DNA from: a virus
Taxonomy: Duplodnaviria > Heunggongvirae > Uroviricota > Caudoviricetes
Reading direction: 5' to 3' (one strand)
IMG/VR virus record: IMGVR_UViG_2687453530_000006
Span: 1 to 42,965 of that record
DNA length: 42,965 bases
Every line of letters starts with the position of its first letter. Positions within the stretch are counted from its first letter, which is position 1. A program made the position numbers and the translations under genes. Shown here in pieces: positions 1,011 to 39,182 of this stretch. Under the pieces are notes generated by a model. That model saw only the letters and a list, made by a program, of their open reading frames with translations. It ran no database searches and was not told the DNA's origin.

Positions 1011-4000
1011 TATGCAAGCCTCACAATATAGTTAAATGCGATGTTTTTGACGGTGTTTTCCGCATTACCAGCAGCGTTAACGGTGATGGTGTGTCCATGT
1101 GAACCAATCGCAACGGAGTGCGTATGAGCACCAATACCGACAGTATGCGCGTGTGCACCTGCAGATGCTGCTGTGCCGGACAGTGAGTGGCTATGATTAC
1201 CATCTGTACTGGTATTAGCTAACCACCCCGTAGACATACCTACTGAGCCTTGTACACCCCAGGTATTTTGACCTGAGCTTGTATAACCATATTGATAAGT
1301 ATCTTTAAAAACACTGGGGTTAAATCGACGGCCATCTCTATGGCTGTGATTACCAGCTGCATTCGTGCTGCCACTTAAACTATGAGTATGCGCACCAGTG
1401 TTATTCGTGGATTTAGTGCCGTAATCAAACGATGATGTGGTTTTCGTACCCAAATCCGTACTGGATACGCTGGCGCTGTGGGTGTGCGATTTAATGCCGT
1501 CCTGTTCCTGAGACAATACGGCACGACCACTGGCGGGCTTGCCCTTAATCGTCCAGCCACGCATATCAGGGATCACGCCTGACGGATAAGCGGCTGCAAG
1601 TTTCGGGTAAGCAGATTTGTCAAAAGTCTGCCCCTGCATCAGGGCATAACCAGACGGAACGGTATCTGATGGCCACGGGATTGGTGCGCCGACTGGGTAG
1701 CTTTCTGGTGGAAGATTTTTCGAGGTATAAACTTCTGCCCAGTCTTCCTCAAAACCATAACCGTCTCTTGAAGAACGGTAGAACAGACCACCATTTCTGT
1801 AATGCGCCTTCATCTGCAGGGTCCGGCAACTTCCGACTCCGGTATAGAAGTTAACCAGAATATAGCTGTCGCCAGAGCGGGTGACATTGTAAGCGCCTGA
1901 TTCGGCATTCCAGGGAACGCCACCATCCGCATCGGCATATGTATCCGTTGCCCTTCTGGCAAAAGCAGCCACATGCGCGGCGGTTAAAGTAATATCTTTT
2001 GAACCATCAAACTCAACCCCAGAAACCAGTCTTGGCGTTTGCAGCTTTGTTGCTGTCAATGCGTTACCGTTCAGACTTGCAGACAGCTTGGTTCCAATAA
2101 CCAGTTCGCCGGTTGCGTTATCAATAGCAAACGGTCTTAATGTATTCCATCCACCATAAACATCACCTTGATTGGTAAGCAGCAGGTAAGTTTTAGCGCC
2201 ATCATTACGCCATAATGCCCCATACTCCCCACCTATCATTCGAATCTGATTACCACCACGCGCTACAATTTCGTCTGTGGCAAAAAGTTTTTTGCACGAC
2301 AAGTTATCGTTAACGATTAACGAATGAGACTCATAAAAACCACGCCCACTCTTAAAATCAAGGATAACGTCCGCCGCGATACATTCAGTCGCTGGATTTG
2401 TTGCCCCAAACTTATAGGTCGTATCATTAACAACGAGATCAGCACCAGGTGCGGATATTGACAGGCCATCTTCGATAAACGCAAAAACAGGGAAAGCAGC
2501 GCCATCAACATAGAACACAGAGCGCAAATCATCGCCCTTATTACTCATCATTATTGAGTGGATGGCTCGTTCATTGTTTTGATATTGCCAGAACATTCCA
2601 TAAGCATAACGCCCCCTGTCAGTCCAGCCACCAGGCATAACAAATCCGTTAAACTCGCAGTTATTCATCGGATCGCCTGCGGTTCGCGTTGCCGTGGTGA
2701 TAATGACCCTTGATGCCAGTTCGCTTACTGAGCCAGCAGAACGCATAACAACAACAGGGTAATATTTTCCAGATGTTGCACCTGCAGGAGCGTTAACCCG
2801 CACATAACGCATACCACGCTTATCAGCAAAGTCTGTTTTACTGACCGCGTTAATGTTGTTCAGGAAGCGTCCCTTATCGGGTATATCAGCGCCGTTCTGG
2901 TCTTTCTGCAGACGTTTCTCTGCATTGTCATAGGCTGATTTTACTGCCTTTGGCGTTGCCGCCAGCGTTTCAGACGTGCTGTTGGTCGCGCTGCTTAGCT
3001 GGATTATCCCTTTCTGTGCTGTCGTTGCATCCTGTGCGGTGTATTTCCCGTTAGCCAGGTCATACGCGGCCTTAACGGCTTTTGGCGTTGCCGCCAGTGA
3101 CTCGGAAGTGCTATTGGTCGCACTGCTGAGCTGTACTATCCCCTTTTTCGTCGTGCTCGCATCCTCAAGCGCCACGGCGGATGCAATATCCTCTGCCCGT
3201 TTTGCCGCTGTCTCAGCGCGCGTTGCCGCGGATTCCGCCGTACTTTTGCTCTGAGCTGCCGCCGTCGCACTGCCAGCTGCCTCTGTCGCCTTCGTGGATG
3301 CCGTCGTGGCGCTGCCCTTCGCTGCGGACGCTTGTCTGGTCGCCTCATCTTTTGAAGCAGACGCAGATGATGCCGATGACGCCGCCGAACTGGCGGACGA
3401 TGCGGCAGCCGTTTTTGAGGATTCTGCGCTGGTTTCCGACGCTTTCGCGTTCGTCTCGGATGTCTTCGCTGCGGAAGCAGACCTCGCTGCTGCGCTGGCC
3501 TGTACAGCGGCTTCGCCAGCCTTCGTTGTGGCTGTTGAAGCGGACGATGCAGCACTTTCTGCCGATTTTCCGGCGGCGGTGGCACTGGCTGAGGCCTGCC
3601 CGGCACTTGTTGACGCGGCACTGGCAGACGACGCAGCCGCTGTTTTTGAGCCTGCCGCAGCTGAGGCACTCTGTCCCGCTGCCGTTTCAGAAGACCTGGC
3701 GTTTGTCTCAGACGTCTTTGCCGCCTTCGCGGAATTGCCTGCCGCCGTTGCCGAGGAAGCGGCACTACTGGCGCTTGATGATGCGTTCGTTTCTGATGAT
3801 TTCGCTGCCTCTTTTGAGGCCGCCGCATCCCGGGCTGAGGTGGCTGCTTCTGACGCCTTCGTGGTCGCGGCGGATGCAGAAGTGGCTGCTGATTGTTGTG
3901 ACGCTGCCGCATTCGTTTCTGACGTTTTCGCCGCAGCGGCACTGGTAGCTGCCGCGCTTTTTGAGGACTCTGCAGCAGCAGCACTTTTCGATGCTTCACT

Positions 4001-4604: not shown

Positions 4605-5204
4605 TCAGAATTTATAACCGACACCCACGATGAAACCGTCAGTGCGCCAGTCACCACTGCCGGAGCCTTCATAAGCAATATCAATGGCCACGGATTCGGT
4701 CGGGTTAAACTGCACGCCAGCTCCCCACGCCAGAGACGTGTTGCTGTGGCGACCGTCATCACTTCCGGTCAGCACATCGTGCGTTTTCCCCTTGTTGTCA
4801 GTTACGCGGAGATAATCCCCGGAGAAAGTCGACACACGGCTGTAAGCCACACCCGCCATCGCATACGCGCTGAACCATTCATTCACGCGTACAGACGGCC
4901 CCGCCATCACGCTGAACCAGCGGTTACGCACGGAATCTTCATGCCAGCGGGTATCGCTGTAACGGGTAAGCTGGCGATTCTTGTCTCCTGCATAGCTGAA
5001 TGACGTCACCAGCCCCAGCGTGTCCGTAAATTCATAACGGTATTTCACGTTAATCCCGTTCAGATCATCGCTGCCGGGAACGTTCGTCGAGGCATGAAGA
5101 TACCCCGCGCTCAGCGTGGCCTGCTGCTCAGACGCCCATGCAGGCGCACCGGATACGGCCAGACAGATGGCTGCGGACAAAATGGCTGCACAAACTTTAC
5201 GCAT
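4605..5204 (-). CDS. lom: Lom-like outer membrane protein (Ail/Lom/OmpX family)
   Basis: 199-aa ORF with signal peptide ([24 protein letters not shown]) and beta-barrel-like alternating pattern ending in GYKF; position between J and stf as in lambda. Confidence 0.85.
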
Positions 5205-34967: not shown

Positions 34968-35527
34968 GCGTTAGTTTCTCCACAGACACAAAACGCCACG
35001 ACGCCCGGAGCTGCACACTCGCGGGCGTCACTCTTTTCTGGAGCGCAAAAGATTTTGTAGACCAGTGCTGCATGCTCCTGGAGCTTCGAAATTGACAGAT
35101 ACAACTCATCATTAATTGCTGTCTGCTCGTGTGGCTCCACTACCCCATCTTCGATTGCCGAACGAATCTGCTTTGAGTAACTCCCGATCTGTTCGATGAC
35201 TTCCAGCAGGCGCTGGTTTATATCGGCGTTCTCTACTTCCTCAATTTCAGGAAGCGATACAAACACCCCACCAGCAGACTGTGCGACAGCATCCGCAATG
35301 TAGTGAGTGCCAGCCGCGCGCTGTAAAACCATTGCCCATCCCAGCGGGAAAATCTGATCGCCATCTGCACGAAGGCGGTTGAATAAAGCGTTCTCTGTTA
35401 CATCCAGCCACTCAGCAGCTTCAGCGTAACCCCCCGGCAACGCCGCGATAGTTTTCCTGACAGCTTTCACGTACCACTCAGGCTGTTTTTCTACTTTCCA
35501 GTGATGCTTACCCACGGTTAGCCTCAT
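34964..35527 (-). CDS. CII-like regulatory protein (Phage_CP76-like)
   Basis: 187-aa ORF immediately downstream of the cro-like gene; family recalled by size and position only. Confidence 0.5.
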   Translation of the reverse strand: MRLTVGKHHWKVEKQPEWYVKAVRKTIAALPGGYAEAAEWLDVTENALFNRLRADGDQIFPLGWAMVLQRAAGTHYIADAVAQSAGGVFVSLPEIEEVENADINQRLLEVIEQIGSYSKQIRSAIEDGVVEPHEQTAINDELYLSISKLQEHAALVYKIFCAPEKSDARECAAPGVVAFCVCGETNA

Positions 35528-35558
35528 CGTTCTGTGGTTAAAAATTGAAGGTGTTCTG

Positions 35559-35759
35559 TTAATCTTTCGGATAGATATCCGGTCTTAAGTCAGATTTCGT
35601 AATTGCACCTGACGTGCATTGCTCAAGTTTTTTAGCCAGCACAAAACTGGCTTTTTTATAACCATTGAAAACCAGCCGTAAGTAGCCTGGTGTTGAGCCA
35701 ACTTTTCCGGCCAACTCGCCCTGCTGTTCTTTGGTTAAAGAGTCCCAATACGCTTTCAT
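35559..35759 (-). CDS. cro: Cro-like HTH repressor
   Basis: Start placed at MKAYWDSLTKEQQGELAGKVGSTPGYLRLVFNG (66 aa), preceded by GGAGG; divergent from cI; the ORF extends upstream to 36062. Confidence 0.7.
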   Translation of the reverse strand: MKAYWDSLTKEQQGELAGKVGSTPGYLRLVFNGYKKASFVLAKKLEQCTSGAITKSDLRPDIYPKD

Positions 35760-35849
35760 ACAATATGTACCTCCGATATACATATTACATGATTGAGATG
35801 AACCTTCAAGATACTTGTACCCTATCGGTACAAAGGTTTTAATTTCGTT
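35760..35849. promoter_or_regulatory. cro-cI intergenic operator/promoter region (OR / PR / PRM)
   Basis: Palindrome TTGTACC-N5-GGTACAA at 35815-35833 and a further ATGTACC half-site at 35765-35771 between the divergent cro and cI starts. Confidence 0.6.
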
Positions 35850-36524
35850 ATGAAAACAGTCCATGACATCCGGCGGTCTAACGCCAGAAAACTGAGAGAT
35901 GGTGTTGGCGGGAATTCTTCCTTTGCCACCATGATTGATCGCGAGCCAACCCAGACCAGCAGGTTTATGGGAGATGGTGCTACTAAAAATATCGGTGACA
36001 GCATGGCACGGCACATCGAAAAATGTTTCGACCTGCCTGTCGGATGGCTTGATCAAGAACACCAGACAACAAACATCACAAAAAAACCTGATGTTTCAAT
36101 TACTAACAAACAAATAACGTTAGTCCCTGTCATATCATGGGTACAGGCCGGAGCATGGAAAGAAGTTGGCTATTCTGAGGTTGATTTGAGCACAGCAGAA
36201 ACTTATCCCTGCCCTGTACCCTGTGGCGAAATGACTTATATCTTGCGGGTGATTGGTGATTCAATGATTGATGAGTACCGCCCGGGAGACATGATTTTTG
36301 TAGATCCTGAAGTCCCTGCCTGCCACGGTGACGACGTTATTGCATTGATGCACGATACAGGTGAAACCACCTTCAAAAGGTTGATAGAAGATGGGACACA
36401 GCGTTATCTCAAAGCGTTAAACCCAAACTGGCCTGAGCCTTACATTAAGATCAACGGTAATTGCTCTATAATTGGTACAGTGATTTTCTCAGGAAAACCA
36501 AGAAGATACAAAATCAAAGCCTAA
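35850..36524 (+). CDS. cI: CI-type prophage repressor (N-terminal HTH, C-terminal S24 LexA-like peptidase)
   Basis: 224-aa ORF; C-terminal domain has the Ser (VIGDSM) and Lys (TFKRL) catalytic dyad of autocleaving repressors. Confidence 0.85.
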   Translation: MKTVHDIRRSNARKLRDGVGGNSSFATMIDREPTQTSRFMGDGATKNIGDSMARHIEKCFDLPVGWLDQEHQTTNITKKPDVSITNKQITLVPVISWVQAGAWKEVGYSEVDLSTAETYPCPVPCGEMTYILRVIGDSMIDEYRPGDMIFVDPEVPACHGDDVIALMHDTGETTFKRLIEDGTQRYLKALNPNWPEPYIKINGNCSIIGTVIFSGKPRRYKIKA

Positions 36525-36536
36525 TCAATGTTTATG

Positions 36537-36560
36537 AACCTGCTTCGGCAGGTTTTTTTA
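36537..36560 (+). terminator. Rho-independent terminator of cI
   Basis: aacctgc-ttcg-gcaggtt stem-loop followed by ttttttt, 13 bp after the cI stop. Confidence 0.75.
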
Positions 36561-36562
36561 TA

Positions 36563-36597
36563 CTTGACAATGTACCTTTGAGATACATAATGTACCC
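36563..36597 (+). promoter_or_regulatory. Candidate sigma70 promoter with flanking ATGTACC operator half-sites (pL/OL-like)
   Basis: TTGACA at 36563-36568, spacer of about 17 nt, then a cATAAT-like -10; ATGTACC occurs twice (36568-36575 and 36589-36596). Confidence 0.45.
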
Positions 36598-36866
36598 AAG
36601 CGAAACAACGAACAGGCAGGACGCCCACGAAGTAGCCGCCTGGGGCATATGAAGTCCAGGATGATTCGTTAGCAACAAAAAAGCGCCCTACAGGACGCTT
36701 AGCTCTTTAAAAATCAGTAACCCTCACTTTGGGCCTGGACCAGGTGGCCTGGGACGAGGAGGAATATGAAAAGGCTCTATTGGTCGACTCATTATCCAAT
36801 CCTATTATGTCTCATTTCTTCGGTTTCGGTGGTTTCGGCTTCGGAGGTACATGTCCGTGAACTGGA

Positions 36867-37361
36867 TTATGCTTGTTGGTCATCATTAATATCCGTTAGT
36901 TCATTCTCTAGAGGTAGATCTCCCGCACACCAAGCTATAAATTTTTCTTTGGTTGTTAAATCGTACTTAGTTGGAACACCAGCAAAAATGCAGGCCCGAA
37001 TGAAAGCCGCTCGTTCAAGTGATTTCCATGGATTACTATCAGTATCTTGGATTTTTAAATACCTAGCTTGCAACTGATCTTCAGGAAGGGTATCAGACTC
37101 AATCAGCAGTCTTTTGTAATGCCTCGCTTGCTCTTTAGACATTCCAGCCTCCTGGCCAAACTGATAGACCAACTGAAGAACCGAAAGTACGGCAACAAAC
37201 AAACCGAAAATAAATAAATTACTGTACGGGGCGAAAACTGAAAAACCGAGAACGATTAACATCAACGTTATTAATTTATCAATACGAGTTAACAACGTGT
37301 AATTCATCTTCTCCAATACATAAGAGTAGTGAACATAAAATTTATAATCGTCTCTGGTCAT
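36867..37361 (-). CDS. Two-helix membrane protein (moron; candidate superinfection-exclusion or abortive-infection protein)
   Basis: 164-aa AT-rich ORF convergent with cI; two hydrophobic helices (LITLMLIVLGFSVF, LFIFGLFVAVLSVLQLV) followed by a charged cytoplasmic domain. Confidence 0.5.
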   Translation of the reverse strand: MTRDDYKFYVHYSYVLEKMNYTLLTRIDKLITLMLIVLGFSVFAPYSNLFIFGLFVAVLSVLQLVYQFGQEAGMSKEQARHYKRLLIESDTLPEDQLQARYLKIQDTDSNPWKSLERAAFIRACIFAGVPTKYDLTTKEKFIAWCAGDLPLENELTDINDDQQA

Positions 37362-37748
37362 ATTAGTCTCAGTTTTCCTTGGGTGGTTTTGGAGGAACTG
37401 GAGGCTTTTGTCTTAACGGCACATGCCTCTCCTCATACTTATCTACACATAGATCCATATAAATCCTTATCGTTGTTGGGGAGGGTTACATAATAACCAA
37501 ATCCTTGTTGTTGGGGAATAACCAGGTCCACCTCGCCTGATGTGGCTAAAAGCAGGCACATAACAGCTAAGTATTTTCAACCAGAGAGAATACTTAGCGT
37601 TGTGGTGAATGCGCAGGCTGATGCGCGAAAGACATTGCAGCTATTGCGGAAAAGAGCTGTTCGGCGGGGCAATTAAACGCCCGTGAGAGTCTGAAATAAC
37701 CGCAAGCCGGAGATCAGCACCGGTCACCACAACAGCCACTGCTTTGGC

Positions 37749-37795
37749 GGTACCAGTTTGTACACTTGCTTCCGGCTGGTACCGCTCTTTTTACA
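37749..37795 (+). promoter_or_regulatory. Hairpin with T-run and boxA-like motif upstream of the pL-type operon
   Basis: ggtaccag ... ctggtacc stem followed by gctcttttta (resembles both an intrinsic terminator and the boxA consensus CGCTCTT(T)A); contains GGTACC/TGTACA operator-like elements. Confidence 0.4.
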
Positions 37796-37929
37796 AAACA
37801 GAGAAGAGCATCACCGGACGACGGGCTCATAACCCAATCCATCCGGGCGGCTACCACCGCAGGTGTTCTTCTCTGTTTTGTGGAGAAACCAACCGACCTT
37901 GCAGGGTCGATATGATGAGGAGCAGCAAA

Positions 37930-38292
37930 ATGGCTAGCGAACGCAGTACCAACGTGCAGGAATTTATCGGGGAGCTGGACGGCGGCGTATTTGAAACCAA
38001 AATCGGCGCAGTTCTCAGTGAAGTCGCTTCCGGTGTGATGAACACGAAAACCAAAGGTAAGGTCTCACTCAACCTGGAAATCGAACCATTTGATGAGAAC
38101 CGTGTGAAAATCAAACACAAACTCTCATATGTTCGCCCGACTAACCGCGGGAAAATTTCCGAAGAAGACACCACCGAAACGCCGATGTATGTCAATCGCG
38201 GTGGTCGCCTGACTATTCTGCAGGAAGACCAGGGACAATTACTGACTCTTGCCGGTGAACCTGACGGAAAACTCCGCGCAGCAGGTCATTAA
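37930..38292 (+). CDS. YfdP-like hypothetical protein
   Basis: 120 aa from the Met at 37930, preceded by GAGGAG; the ORF extends upstream to 37744; first gene of the leftward early operon. Confidence 0.55.
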   Translation: MASERSTNVQEFIGELDGGVFETKIGAVLSEVASGVMNTKTKGKVSLNLEIEPFDENRVKIKHKLSYVRPTNRGKISEEDTTETPMYVNRGGRLTILQEDQGQLLTLAGEPDGKLRAAGH

Positions 38293-38357
38293 TATCGTTC
38301 TTAATTAACTGATTATTTATCTCATCACTGAATATCTTAATATAGTGAGGACTTATT

Positions 38358-39182
38358 ATGTCTCAGAACTTAGACTCAACCGCAATTAATCAAATCCATG
38401 CCCTTATTTCTGCTCAGGGTGTTAATGAAATTATCAGTAAGATTGGTGCCGATGCTGTGGCATTGCCTGAGAATTTCCGCATTCATGATCTGGAAAAATT
38501 TAATTTAAATCGTTTCCGTTTCCGTGGTGCACTTTCCACTGCCAGCATCGATGACTTTACCCGTTATTCTAAAGATCTTGCAGATGAAGGCACCCGCTGC
38601 TTTATCGATGCCGATAATATGCGAGCCGTCAGTGTGCTTAACCTGGGTACTATTGATGAACCAGGTCACGCAGATAACACCGCCACTCTCAAACTGAAAA
38701 AGACAGCACCGTTCTCTGCTCTGTTGTCTGTTAATGGCGAGCGTAACTCCCAGAAGTCACTGGCAGAATGGATTGAAGACTGGGCAGACTACCTTGTGGG
38801 CTTTGATGCTAATGGTGACGCCATTCAGGCAACCAAAGCGGCTGCGGCGATCCGTAAAATCACAATTGAAGCGAACCAGACCGCTGATTTTGAAGACAAT
38901 GACTTCAGCGGCAAACGCTCCCTGATGGAGTCTGTCGAAGCGAAGACCAAAGACATTATGCCAGTGGCATTTGAATTTAAATGCGTTCCGTTTGAAGGTC
39001 TGAAAGAACGTCCGTTTAAATTACGCCTCAGCATTATCACTGGCGATCGTCCTGTACTGGTTCTGCGCATTATTCAGCTGGAGGCGGTGCAGGAAGAAAT
39101 GGCTAACGAATTTCGTGATCTGCTTGTTGAGAAATTCAAGGACAGCAAAGTAGAAACCTTTATTGGTACTTTCACCGCCTGA
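38358..39182 (+). CDS. DUF2303-family protein (YfdQ-like)
   Basis: 274-aa ORF; size and position match yfdQ of the E. coli CPS-53 prophage as recalled. Confidence 0.6.

Follow-up and report, generated by a model that had tools for sequence, protein, structure and literature searches.

A micropeptide and membrane-protein cassette on a sieB-type regulatory platform, antisense to pL in a lambdoid prophage, is a candidate phage-exclusion module

The stretch of DNA analysed here (the window) comprises positions 1 to 42,965 of the IMG/VR virus record IMGVR_UViG_2687453530_000006 and belongs to a lambdoid (pro)phage of the SfV / SfIV / CPS-53 type. In its immunity region cro (minus strand), the operators and cI (plus strand) come first, followed by yfdP, yfdQ and yfdR, the leftward early genes, on the plus strand; at least 80% of the segment 36400-38000 is present in 44 of 5,426 complete E. 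coli genomes. Between cI and yfdP, on the minus strand, lie two small genes: a proline-rich micro-open reading frame (micro-ORF) and, downstream of it, a gene for a membrane protein of 164 amino acids (aa). Both are convergent with cI and antisense to transcription from the leftward early promoter, pL. We describe this two-gene cassette, the upstream region from which it is predicted to be expressed, which aligns with the region upstream of the sieB exclusion gene of phages lambda and P22, and the grounds for regarding the cassette as a candidate exclusion module.

The gene for the 164-aa protein occupies 36867-37361 (minus strand) and has a GC content of 38.0%, compared with 51.9% for the window; the preliminary description of this DNA, which had placed an AT-rich membrane-protein gene on the opposite strand ahead of position 37930, was correct on this point. 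The product belongs to phrog_6315, a family of unknown function, and in related E. coli prophages RefSeq calls it a 'hypothetical protein' (WP_000196298.1, WP_001513551.1). Hydropathy places hydrophobic segments at approximately residues 30-45 and 48-68 with a PYSN turn between them, giving a layout of an N-terminal helix (residues 1-29), a transmembrane hairpin (residues 30-68) and a helical C-terminal domain (the last ~95 residues). An AlphaFold2 model (predicted local distance difference test score, pLDDT, of 77) consists of a long helical hairpin and four short C-terminal helices. Basic residues flank both hydrophobic helices, so both ends of this inner-membrane hairpin protein probably face the cytoplasm; the two-helix topology proposed earlier is thus upheld by prediction.

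We found 72 homologues of the protein in Enterobacterales. The 38 that were aligned are 53-90% identical to it, share 38 invariant columns and all conserve the start codon (38/38), and these figures indicate that the ORF is a real and conserved gene. A profile search of 1.84 billion representative proteins (a library clustered at 50% identity) returned 226 related clusters; the 150 that were listed range from 45 to 189 aa, most of them 130-190, and all are stand-alone proteins. A profile search for related loci with the close alignment gave three species-representative genomes. All 38 close homologues keep Met19 (codon 37305-37307), which immediately precedes the first transmembrane helix; it is reminiscent of the start of esc within P22 sieB, although a well-spaced ribosome-binding site is lacking. 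A 186-aa homologue from Enterobacter cloacae (P0002) reads GAA where the window gene has its TAA stop (36867-36869) and continues for a further 22 residues, which suggests that the untranslated 3' stretch between 36867 and the terminator may be a recently truncated tail.

The micro-ORF (37369-37458, minus strand) encodes a peptide of 29 aa, MDLCVDKYEERHVPLRQKPPVPPKPPKEN, and is preceded by an AAGGA ribosome-binding site at 37464-37468. Its TGA stop lies 7 nucleotides (nt) ahead of the ATG of the 164-aa gene and overlaps the ribosome-binding site of that gene. The junction reads GACTGAGAC in the window and GACTGAGGT in most other loci. The micro-ORF carries no RefSeq annotation. It precedes the membrane-protein gene in each homologous locus that was compared (the Salmonella subfamily described below excepted), among them all 20 copies found in viral contigs, and the peptides share the motif [YF]xE[KR]H[MVL]P..Q[RK]PP.PPK followed by an acidic tail. 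Differences within the core of the micro-ORF fall mainly on third codon positions (254, versus 75 and 65 at the other two), and the codon changes there comprise 190 synonymous and 114 non-synonymous ones. This third-position excess indicates that the peptide sequence is under selection. The 164-aa gene had been described as a moron standing alone; it is a real gene, but it is the second cistron after the micro-ORF. The operon ends at an intrinsic terminator at 36675-36700 (minus strand), in which the hairpin 36700-36681, AGCGUCCU-GUAG-AGGGCGCU, is followed by U6, and an exact 23-mer of this terminator is common to 50 fetched loci that carry different genes at this position.

Taken at face value, the lack of any functional annotation for the protein would fit a non-functional or decaying ORF whose arrangement is incidental. 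This explanation does not accommodate the 72 homologues, the conservation within their alignment, the coding-type substitution in the micro-ORF or the synteny and orientation kept across phage families (see below). We give it hardly any credence, and on these comparative grounds regard the decaying-remnant reading as effectively refuted.

Upstream of the micro-ORF, approximately 100 bp are conserved in every phage backbone, whichever gene comes next. In an alignment of seven sequences (from the window, P22, lambda and four further phages) it corresponds to the sequence that precedes lambda and P22 sieB, and 49 columns are invariant. Among the aligned features are the block GTGCCTG(T)CTTTTA.CCACATCAGGC..GGTGG and two direct repeats, which read CCCCAACAAC in the window; lambda and P22 have CCCCTACAG instead. 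Both the promoter of sieB and the start of its RNA are annotated within the aligned segment in the P22 record. Transfer of these positions by alignment predicts a sieB-type promoter for the cassette at 37482-37518 (minus strand), with a -35-like TTCCCC at 37513-37518, a -10 element TATTAT at 37490-37495 and a start at ~37482. The minus-strand gene, expected from the outset to be transcribed antisense to pL, thereby acquires a predicted promoter of its own, homologous to the sieB promoter region of lambda and P22. Control by CsrA through the two CCCCAACAAC-AAGGA repeats was considered and rejected: alignment to the RNA start of P22 sieB puts the first repeat in the -35 element, outside the mRNA.

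In P22, the choice of which sieB product is translated is made by the small antisense RNA sas (PMC12197685; bioRxiv 10.1101/787010), whose 127 nt sequence has been defined by RNA-seq (PMC13397905). This sequence maps to 2637-2763 (minus strand) of the P22 locus in our set (L031), precisely on the complementary strand of the segment homologous to the promoter region of the cassette, where it extends from just inside the sieB start codon, via the 5' untranslated region (UTR) and the promoter, to just past the conserved block. Since P22 sas maps onto the homologous segment, we predict that the window has a sas-like template on the pL strand, at ~37454-37574 (plus strand). Complementarity of the resulting RNA would extend over the start codon, the 5' UTR and the promoter of the cassette as well as the conserved block 37528-37559. 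SieB itself has an abortive-infection function, in which macromolecular synthesis is stopped midway through infection by related phages (PMC10883804).

Directly after cI there is an intrinsic terminator (36536-36562, plus strand) with an 8-bp GC-rich stem (hairpin 36536-36555), a UUCG loop and U7. Its fold of -11.6 kcal/mol (z = -4.5) was equalled by none of 200 shuffled sequences, and it is also annotated in the SfV and phage Ayreon records, in agreement with the strong terminator originally noted there. It is followed at once by a promoter (36564-36607, plus strand, including its operators) with a -35 element TTGACA (36564-36569), a 16 bp spacer and a -10 element CATAAT (36586-36591). This is an 11/12 match to the sigma-70 consensus and the best site within 34.5-39 kb in a promoter scan; the promoter predicted at this place was therefore genuine as far as its sequence goes, and the Ayreon record annotates it too. 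Two operators overlap it: OL1 (36571-36587), an exact 17-bp operator inside the spacer, and OL2 (36591-36607), a one-mismatch copy covering the transcription start. The ATGTACC half-sites that had been likened to those of the cro-cI region turned out to be halves of this 17-bp operator, TGTACC-N6-RTACA, in both places. Exact copies of the operator occur in the whole window only at 35766-35782, 35816-35832 and 36571-36587. With up to one mismatch, on both strands of the window, there are eight matches against 0.73 expected. They represent six positions, namely the four operators, of which two are matched on both strands, and a further two. ATGTACC by itself is not significant in the whole window (seven found, 3.6 expected).

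The similarity between the window and a prophage that has another repressor starts only at 36604, which places the boundary of the exchangeable immunity module at the pL transcription start, as in lambda-type phages. The leader block that begins here (36604-36715, plus strand) is common to phages with other repressors and other minus-strand genes, and opens with a CAGGACGC motif that is also found in the pL leaders of lambda and P22. The scan found no promoter-like site other than this one on the plus strand ahead of yfdP. Given the operators, the module boundary, the CAGGACGC leader and the lack of a rival promoter, we accept the plus-strand promoter as the pL equivalent that the preliminary description had suspected. 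As judged from these features it is a cI-controlled pL from which ~1.3 kb of rightward transcription is required to reach yfdP.

What lies between pL and the early genes differs from phage to phage. Pairwise BLAST comparison showed that the segment 36716-37463 (minus strand), which holds the micro-ORF and the membrane-protein gene, is not shared with SfIV, Kati or PhiR49_1, whereas its flanks are; these phages have other minus-strand genes in the same place. We refer to the exchangeable genes as cargo and to the upstream promoter region as the platform. The downstream flank of the slot is the minus-strand terminator at 36700-36681. A scan of viral contigs with a 21-nt piece of the platform identified at least 120 contigs with at least 10 repressor types, in which at least eight unrelated cargo families follow the platform. 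In the 108 contigs that could be analysed for cargo, the commonest was a 144-aa soluble protein of the SfIV_36 type (38 contigs), then a 171-aa protein with a coiled coil and a zinc ribbon (31), the pair of micro-ORF and membrane protein (20), a 78-aa protein (8) and a protein of 176 aa whose N-terminus resembles a signal peptide and which matches LprI below threshold (6), together with several singletons. Loci L033, L039, L034 and L062 are examples with other cargos. In an Enterobacter prophage (L008), a second copy of the CCTGTCTTTTCACCACATCAGGCTCGGTGG block lies downstream of the membrane-protein gene (4872-4960, plus strand) and is followed by a zinc-ribbon ORF (MDEVKFSCPECSG...), an order that suggests two cassettes in tandem.

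In 99 of the 120 contigs listed, the strand opposite to the platform carries a repressor homologue (one of 10 types) 680-2359 bp beyond it; the other 21 had no flanking sequence or no recognisable repressor. In all 99 the cargo is convergent with the repressor, and no other arrangement was seen. Position and orientation are likewise kept in 17 loci from six homologue groups of the membrane protein. The idea of a one-off moron did not survive this comparison, as the gene is one of many interchangeable cargos in a known slot. None of the cargos has a significant match in Pfam or PADLOC (six alternative cargos were compared with PADLOC at E up to 0.01), and the other cargo families, at least seven in number, are all candidate exclusion genes.

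More distant homologues of the membrane protein (30-36% identity), each with a recognisable micro-ORF and the same junction of stop codon and ribosome-binding site, occur in three other settings. In one the pair lies between the Q antiterminator gene and the holin gene and is oriented against both; in another it belongs to an early-left region of the yfdP type; and in the third, found in the 186/P2-like phages Fels-2 and Yersinia vB_YenM_42.18, it is embedded in the early lytic operon. These distant prophage loci all have the pair antisense to a lytic operon. We regard this independent recurrence as the strongest argument that the pair is active in the lysogen and silenced in the lytic cycle. 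The homologues in Fels-2 (L159, NC_010463 30343-30801, plus strand) and vB_YenM_42.18 (L160) are 34-35% identical, and both records leave the pair unannotated and call opposite-strand ORFs instead. Gene 17 is described in the P22 record with the words 'allows growth on phage Fels2 lysogen', which makes the Fels-2 copy a candidate for the exclusion function that this gene overcomes.

Exclusion could also take its classical form, in which DNA entry is blocked at the inner membrane without killing of the cell, as for P22 SieA, T4 Imm and HK97 gp15. Small membrane proteins are the usual agents of injection block. The protein described here is a predicted inner-membrane protein from a prophage immunity region, and SieA is an inner-membrane protein as well (PMC10883804). 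However, the predicted periplasmic part amounts to just the four-residue PYSN turn, while ~125 residues are cytoplasmic; sieB, with which the cassette shares its slot and platform, takes effect midway through the lytic cycle; and the phages with homologues have virions of unrelated types (lambda-like and P2/186-like), a distribution that speaks against a lock on a single injection machine. We consider a DNA-entry block unlikely.

We suggest instead that the cassette is the counterpart of the sieB exclusion locus of lambda and P22 with a different cargo, that is, an exclusion or abortive-infection module expressed by the prophage and silenced by pL. Comparative sequence data and analogy lead us to hold this with moderate confidence, and its regulatory anatomy is much more secure than its function. 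Since the cassette sits in the sieB slot, antisense to the early-left operon, it is most likely a phage-exclusion module. A role in superinfection exclusion or abortive infection fits the slot because sieB occupies it in lambda and P22, and it is by this analogy that we infer such a role for the 164-aa protein. In the lysogen, cI would hold pL off and the weak, constitutive sieB-type promoter (~37482) would drive synthesis of both products. Once pL becomes active, whether through induction or from an incoming phage with the same platform, antisense transcription would run through the operon, and the sas-like RNA (37454-37574) would pair, in the first cistron, with the shared 5' UTR, the ribosome-binding site and the start codon. 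The second cistron being laid out for translational coupling, shut-off or re-balancing would extend to the entire module, and the phage's own lytic growth would thereby be spared. There is a direct precedent for silencing on pL firing, in that the homologous P22 segment templates sas, and by analogy silencing here would probably involve the sas-like antisense RNA as well as transcriptional collision. Ranade and Poteete reportedly described in 1993 that sas is processed from the pL transcript. The regulatory logic put forward in the preliminary description, expression in the lysogen and silencing by convergent transcription on induction, thus gains independent comparative support at each step. 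The membrane protein would be the abortive-infection effector, to judge from its architecture and slot, and would respond to a foreign infecting phage by impairing the membrane or halting macromolecular synthesis. The micropeptide may be its co-factor, restraint, antidote or translational gate.

Several observations count against this proposal. On the side of regulation, a promoter scan at the standard threshold found nothing upstream of the minus-strand operon, the promoter there being predicted by homology alone, and the predicted -35 element is weak (3/6). RNAalifold gave only invariant stems with almost no covariation for the sas-like RNA, and its stability relative to shuffled controls is not unusual (z = -0.56). 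On the side of the protein, the Pfam SieB model PF14163 matched neither the 164-aa protein nor its 38 close homologues at E up to 10, and SieB was not among the 10 families matched by 118 diverse relatives at E up to 0.01; as a positive control, the same model detected lambda SieB at 1e-29 and P22 SieB at 4e-29. Alignment of the 118-sequence profile by hhalign gave probabilities of 0.3% for P22 SieB and 0.4% for lambda SieB. PADLOC-DB v2 contained no defence model for the 164-aa protein at E up to 1, no significant Pfam or NCBIfam family was found for the protein with its 38 close and 118 distant homologues, and fold searches were uninformative or not significant. Finally, a subfamily at 26-30% identity is very common on the Salmonella chromosome (L025-L029; one cluster has 1,564 member sequences). 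Its neighbours are sopE2 and a fimbrial operon; no micro-ORF accompanies it and no immunity region is recognisable nearby, so that the membrane protein may serve a purpose unrelated to phages.

The comparisons with SieB indicate that the 164-aa protein is not a SieB homologue. By hydropathy it has two N-terminal transmembrane helices and a cytoplasmic domain, as do both SieB proteins, a likeness of architecture that is no evidence of common descent. TIGR04402 recurred in 28 of the 38 members but stayed below threshold (12-17 bits, cut-off 70) and was not used. A profile search of PDB sequences yielded designed or coiled-coil noise only.

The location of the subfamily beside the virulence gene sopE2, outside an immunity region, would suit a toxin-antitoxin-like addiction or stabilisation module, or a lysogenic-conversion membrane factor with no anti-phage role. 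A small upstream peptide tightly coupled to a membrane protein, and the lack of a match to known defence models, point the same way. Against this, the module is always antisense in lytic operons, in lambda-like and in P2/186-like phages, and stands on the sieB platform. Such placement implies a function that is wanted only in the lysogen and harmful in lytic growth, the hallmark of an exclusion gene. The other cargos of the slot are equally uncharacterised and so do not help to decide the matter. We judge a module of this type improbable.

SLATT proteins offer another comparison. They are SMODS- or SLOG-associating proteins, also partner reverse transcriptases such as DRT10, and are predicted to be membrane-disrupting suicide effectors. 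Two homologues of the 164-aa protein are named SLATT in UniRef. SLATT_5 gave the best matches, with E = 0.034 in Pfam (one of the 38 members) and 5e-4 in NCBIfam (two of the 38), with sub-threshold matches to SLATT_4 and DUF4231 besides, and among the 26 best Foldseek matches in the BFVD viral-structure library seven bear SLATT names. The protein could on these grounds be a bona fide SLATT effector, gated by a nucleotide second messenger from a partner enzyme, as in systems that resemble cyclic-oligonucleotide-based anti-phage signalling (CBASS) or in those with a reverse transcriptase. However, no SLATT model is significant (the one match listed with its score has 12.7 bits, cut-off 60), none matches any of the 118 diverse members at E up to 0.01, and all the Foldseek matches have E >= 0.08. 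No SMODS, SLOG, TIR or reverse-transcriptase partner was present in more than 20 loci, the micro-ORF being the only constant neighbour, and the listed relatives are stand-alone proteins. We therefore think a SLATT effector in the strict sense very unlikely, and describe the protein as weakly SLATT-like, in shape only.

If the cassette is the exclusion module that we propose, the uncharacterised phrog_6315 and an unannotated micropeptide gain a testable role in phage exclusion, for which the Fels-2 homologue in the model strain Salmonella LT2 is an immediate experimental handle. The sieB/sas arrangement, described 30 years ago, would not be peculiar to P22 and lambda. There would be a conserved socket with at least eight unrelated candidate exclusion genes, in at least 120 viral contigs and at least 10 immunity types, and hence a source of new defence genes, each with a built-in mechanism of self-immunity. 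Antisense placement in lytic operons would be a general design rule by which a dangerous gene is active only in the lysogen. More tentatively, and with less than even confidence, we raise the possibility that the sieB promoter and sas platform is a general plug-in socket for abortive-infection cargo in lambdoid prophages, and that the micropeptide and membrane protein are a new, widespread abortive-infection pair. Any gene placed between the platform and the conserved terminator would then be expressed in the lysogen and turned off automatically, through the shared 5' UTR and the sas-like RNA, when the pL of the phage itself or of its kin fires. The pair would have been embedded antisense separately by lambda-like phages (in pL and late operons) and by 186/P2-like phages (in early operons), and the proline-rich micro-ORF would be a translational gate or an antidote. 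The regulatory design itself goes back in the literature to 1993, whereas the cargo family, its micropeptide partner and the recognition of the sieB/sas platform as a widespread socket appear to be new. Literature searches found no paper on the sieB slot as a cargo hotspot, on the micropeptide or on characterisation of the 164-aa family.

The surrounding genes are those of the immunity region. The cro-like repressor gene (35559-35759, minus strand; 66 aa) matches phrog_35 (transcriptional repressor) at 3e-15 and, weakly, HTH_3 and YdaS, and its counterpart is annotated as cro in the SfV record. The OR region (35766-35832) contains two of the exact 17-bp operators, at 35766-35782 and 35816-35832; the latter is a perfect palindrome, and the SfV record annotates a putative operator region at this position. 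The cI gene (35850-36524, plus strand) encodes a 224-aa repressor of the LexA/S24 type (Peptidase_S24 1.5e-26; phrog_4 1.9e-49). An Rfam scan of 35000-39000 with E up to 1 gave no match.

Within the pL leader, a boxA-like GCTCTTTAAAAAT (36703-36715, plus strand; lambda nutL boxA is CGCTCTTAAAAATTAA) lies directly past the hairpin 36681-36700 and ends the conserved block. A lambda-style nutL was sought, but no convincing boxB hairpin follows GCTCTTTAAAAAT and no N-like gene is evident from pL to yfdP. Further on, ~140 nt before yfdP, is a terminator-like hairpin (37746-37793, plus strand) with a 13-bp stem (-21 kcal/mol, z = -3.5), followed by CUCUUUUU; none of 200 shuffled sequences folds as well. 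In view of this strong hairpin, pL transcripts may need antitermination. A perfect 15-bp long-range inverted repeat, ACAAAACAGAGAAGA ... TCTTCTCTGTTTTGT (37793-37880, plus strand), encloses ~57 nt just before yfdP, and the leader around it may be a structured regulatory RNA. The leader segment 37575-37929 is conserved among SfV-like phages, and some records show an N-terminal extension of yfdP or a frameshifted gene there. The first early-left gene (37930-38292, plus strand) encodes a yfdP-like protein of 120 aa (phrog_204 2.7e-49), which RefSeq also names yfdP.

The cassette can be compared with several known systems. The sie2009/ltp proteins of lactococcal and streptococcal phages block DNA injection, and we know of no antisense control of their genes. 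As is predicted for the 164-aa protein, they are small, associate with the membrane and are expressed by the prophage from genes next to the lysogeny module (for Sie2009, see PMC6379469), but their hosts are Gram-positive and there is no sequence relationship. The rexAB genes of lambda differ in being co-transcribed with cI on the same strand, upstream of pL and not antisense to it, and are likewise unrelated in sequence. RexB is a multi-pass protein. RexA/RexB nevertheless resemble the cassette as a prophage-expressed abortive-infection system that is located in the immunity region beside cI and has a membrane component (PMC6379469). The two-transmembrane helical hairpin and flanking cytoplasmic helices predicted for the protein may be of the kind seen in the SLATT effectors, of which there are weak echoes in sequence and fold, whereas it lacks a significant model match and a signalling or reverse-transcriptase partner, and is a stand-alone cargo paired with a micropeptide. 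The slot as a whole recalls the hotspots described in 2022 (PMC9122126), in which conserved flanks surround unrelated cargos that are swapped between related temperate elements. Here, however, the socket belongs to lambdoid phages and coincides with the sieB position, the upstream flank serves as a regulatory device composed of a promoter and an antisense-RNA template, and no cargo matched a PADLOC defence model.

The closest parallel is the SieB-Esc-sas system of P22 and lambda. It occupies the same slot, downstream of pL and ahead of the early-left genes, where it is encoded on the strand opposite to pL and converges on the repressor gene, and its promoter, 5' UTR and sas region are homologous to those of the cassette. 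SieB, too, has two N-terminal hydrophobic helices and a cytoplasmic domain of ~100 residues. The cargo protein itself is non-homologous, its helices being joined by a turn of four residues compared with ~15 in SieB, and in contrast to P22 and lambda there is no N/24 gene between pL and the cassette. P22 sieB contains the internal esc start, whereas the cassette has a separate, proline-rich micro-ORF upstream, which may serve as an antidote in place of Esc.

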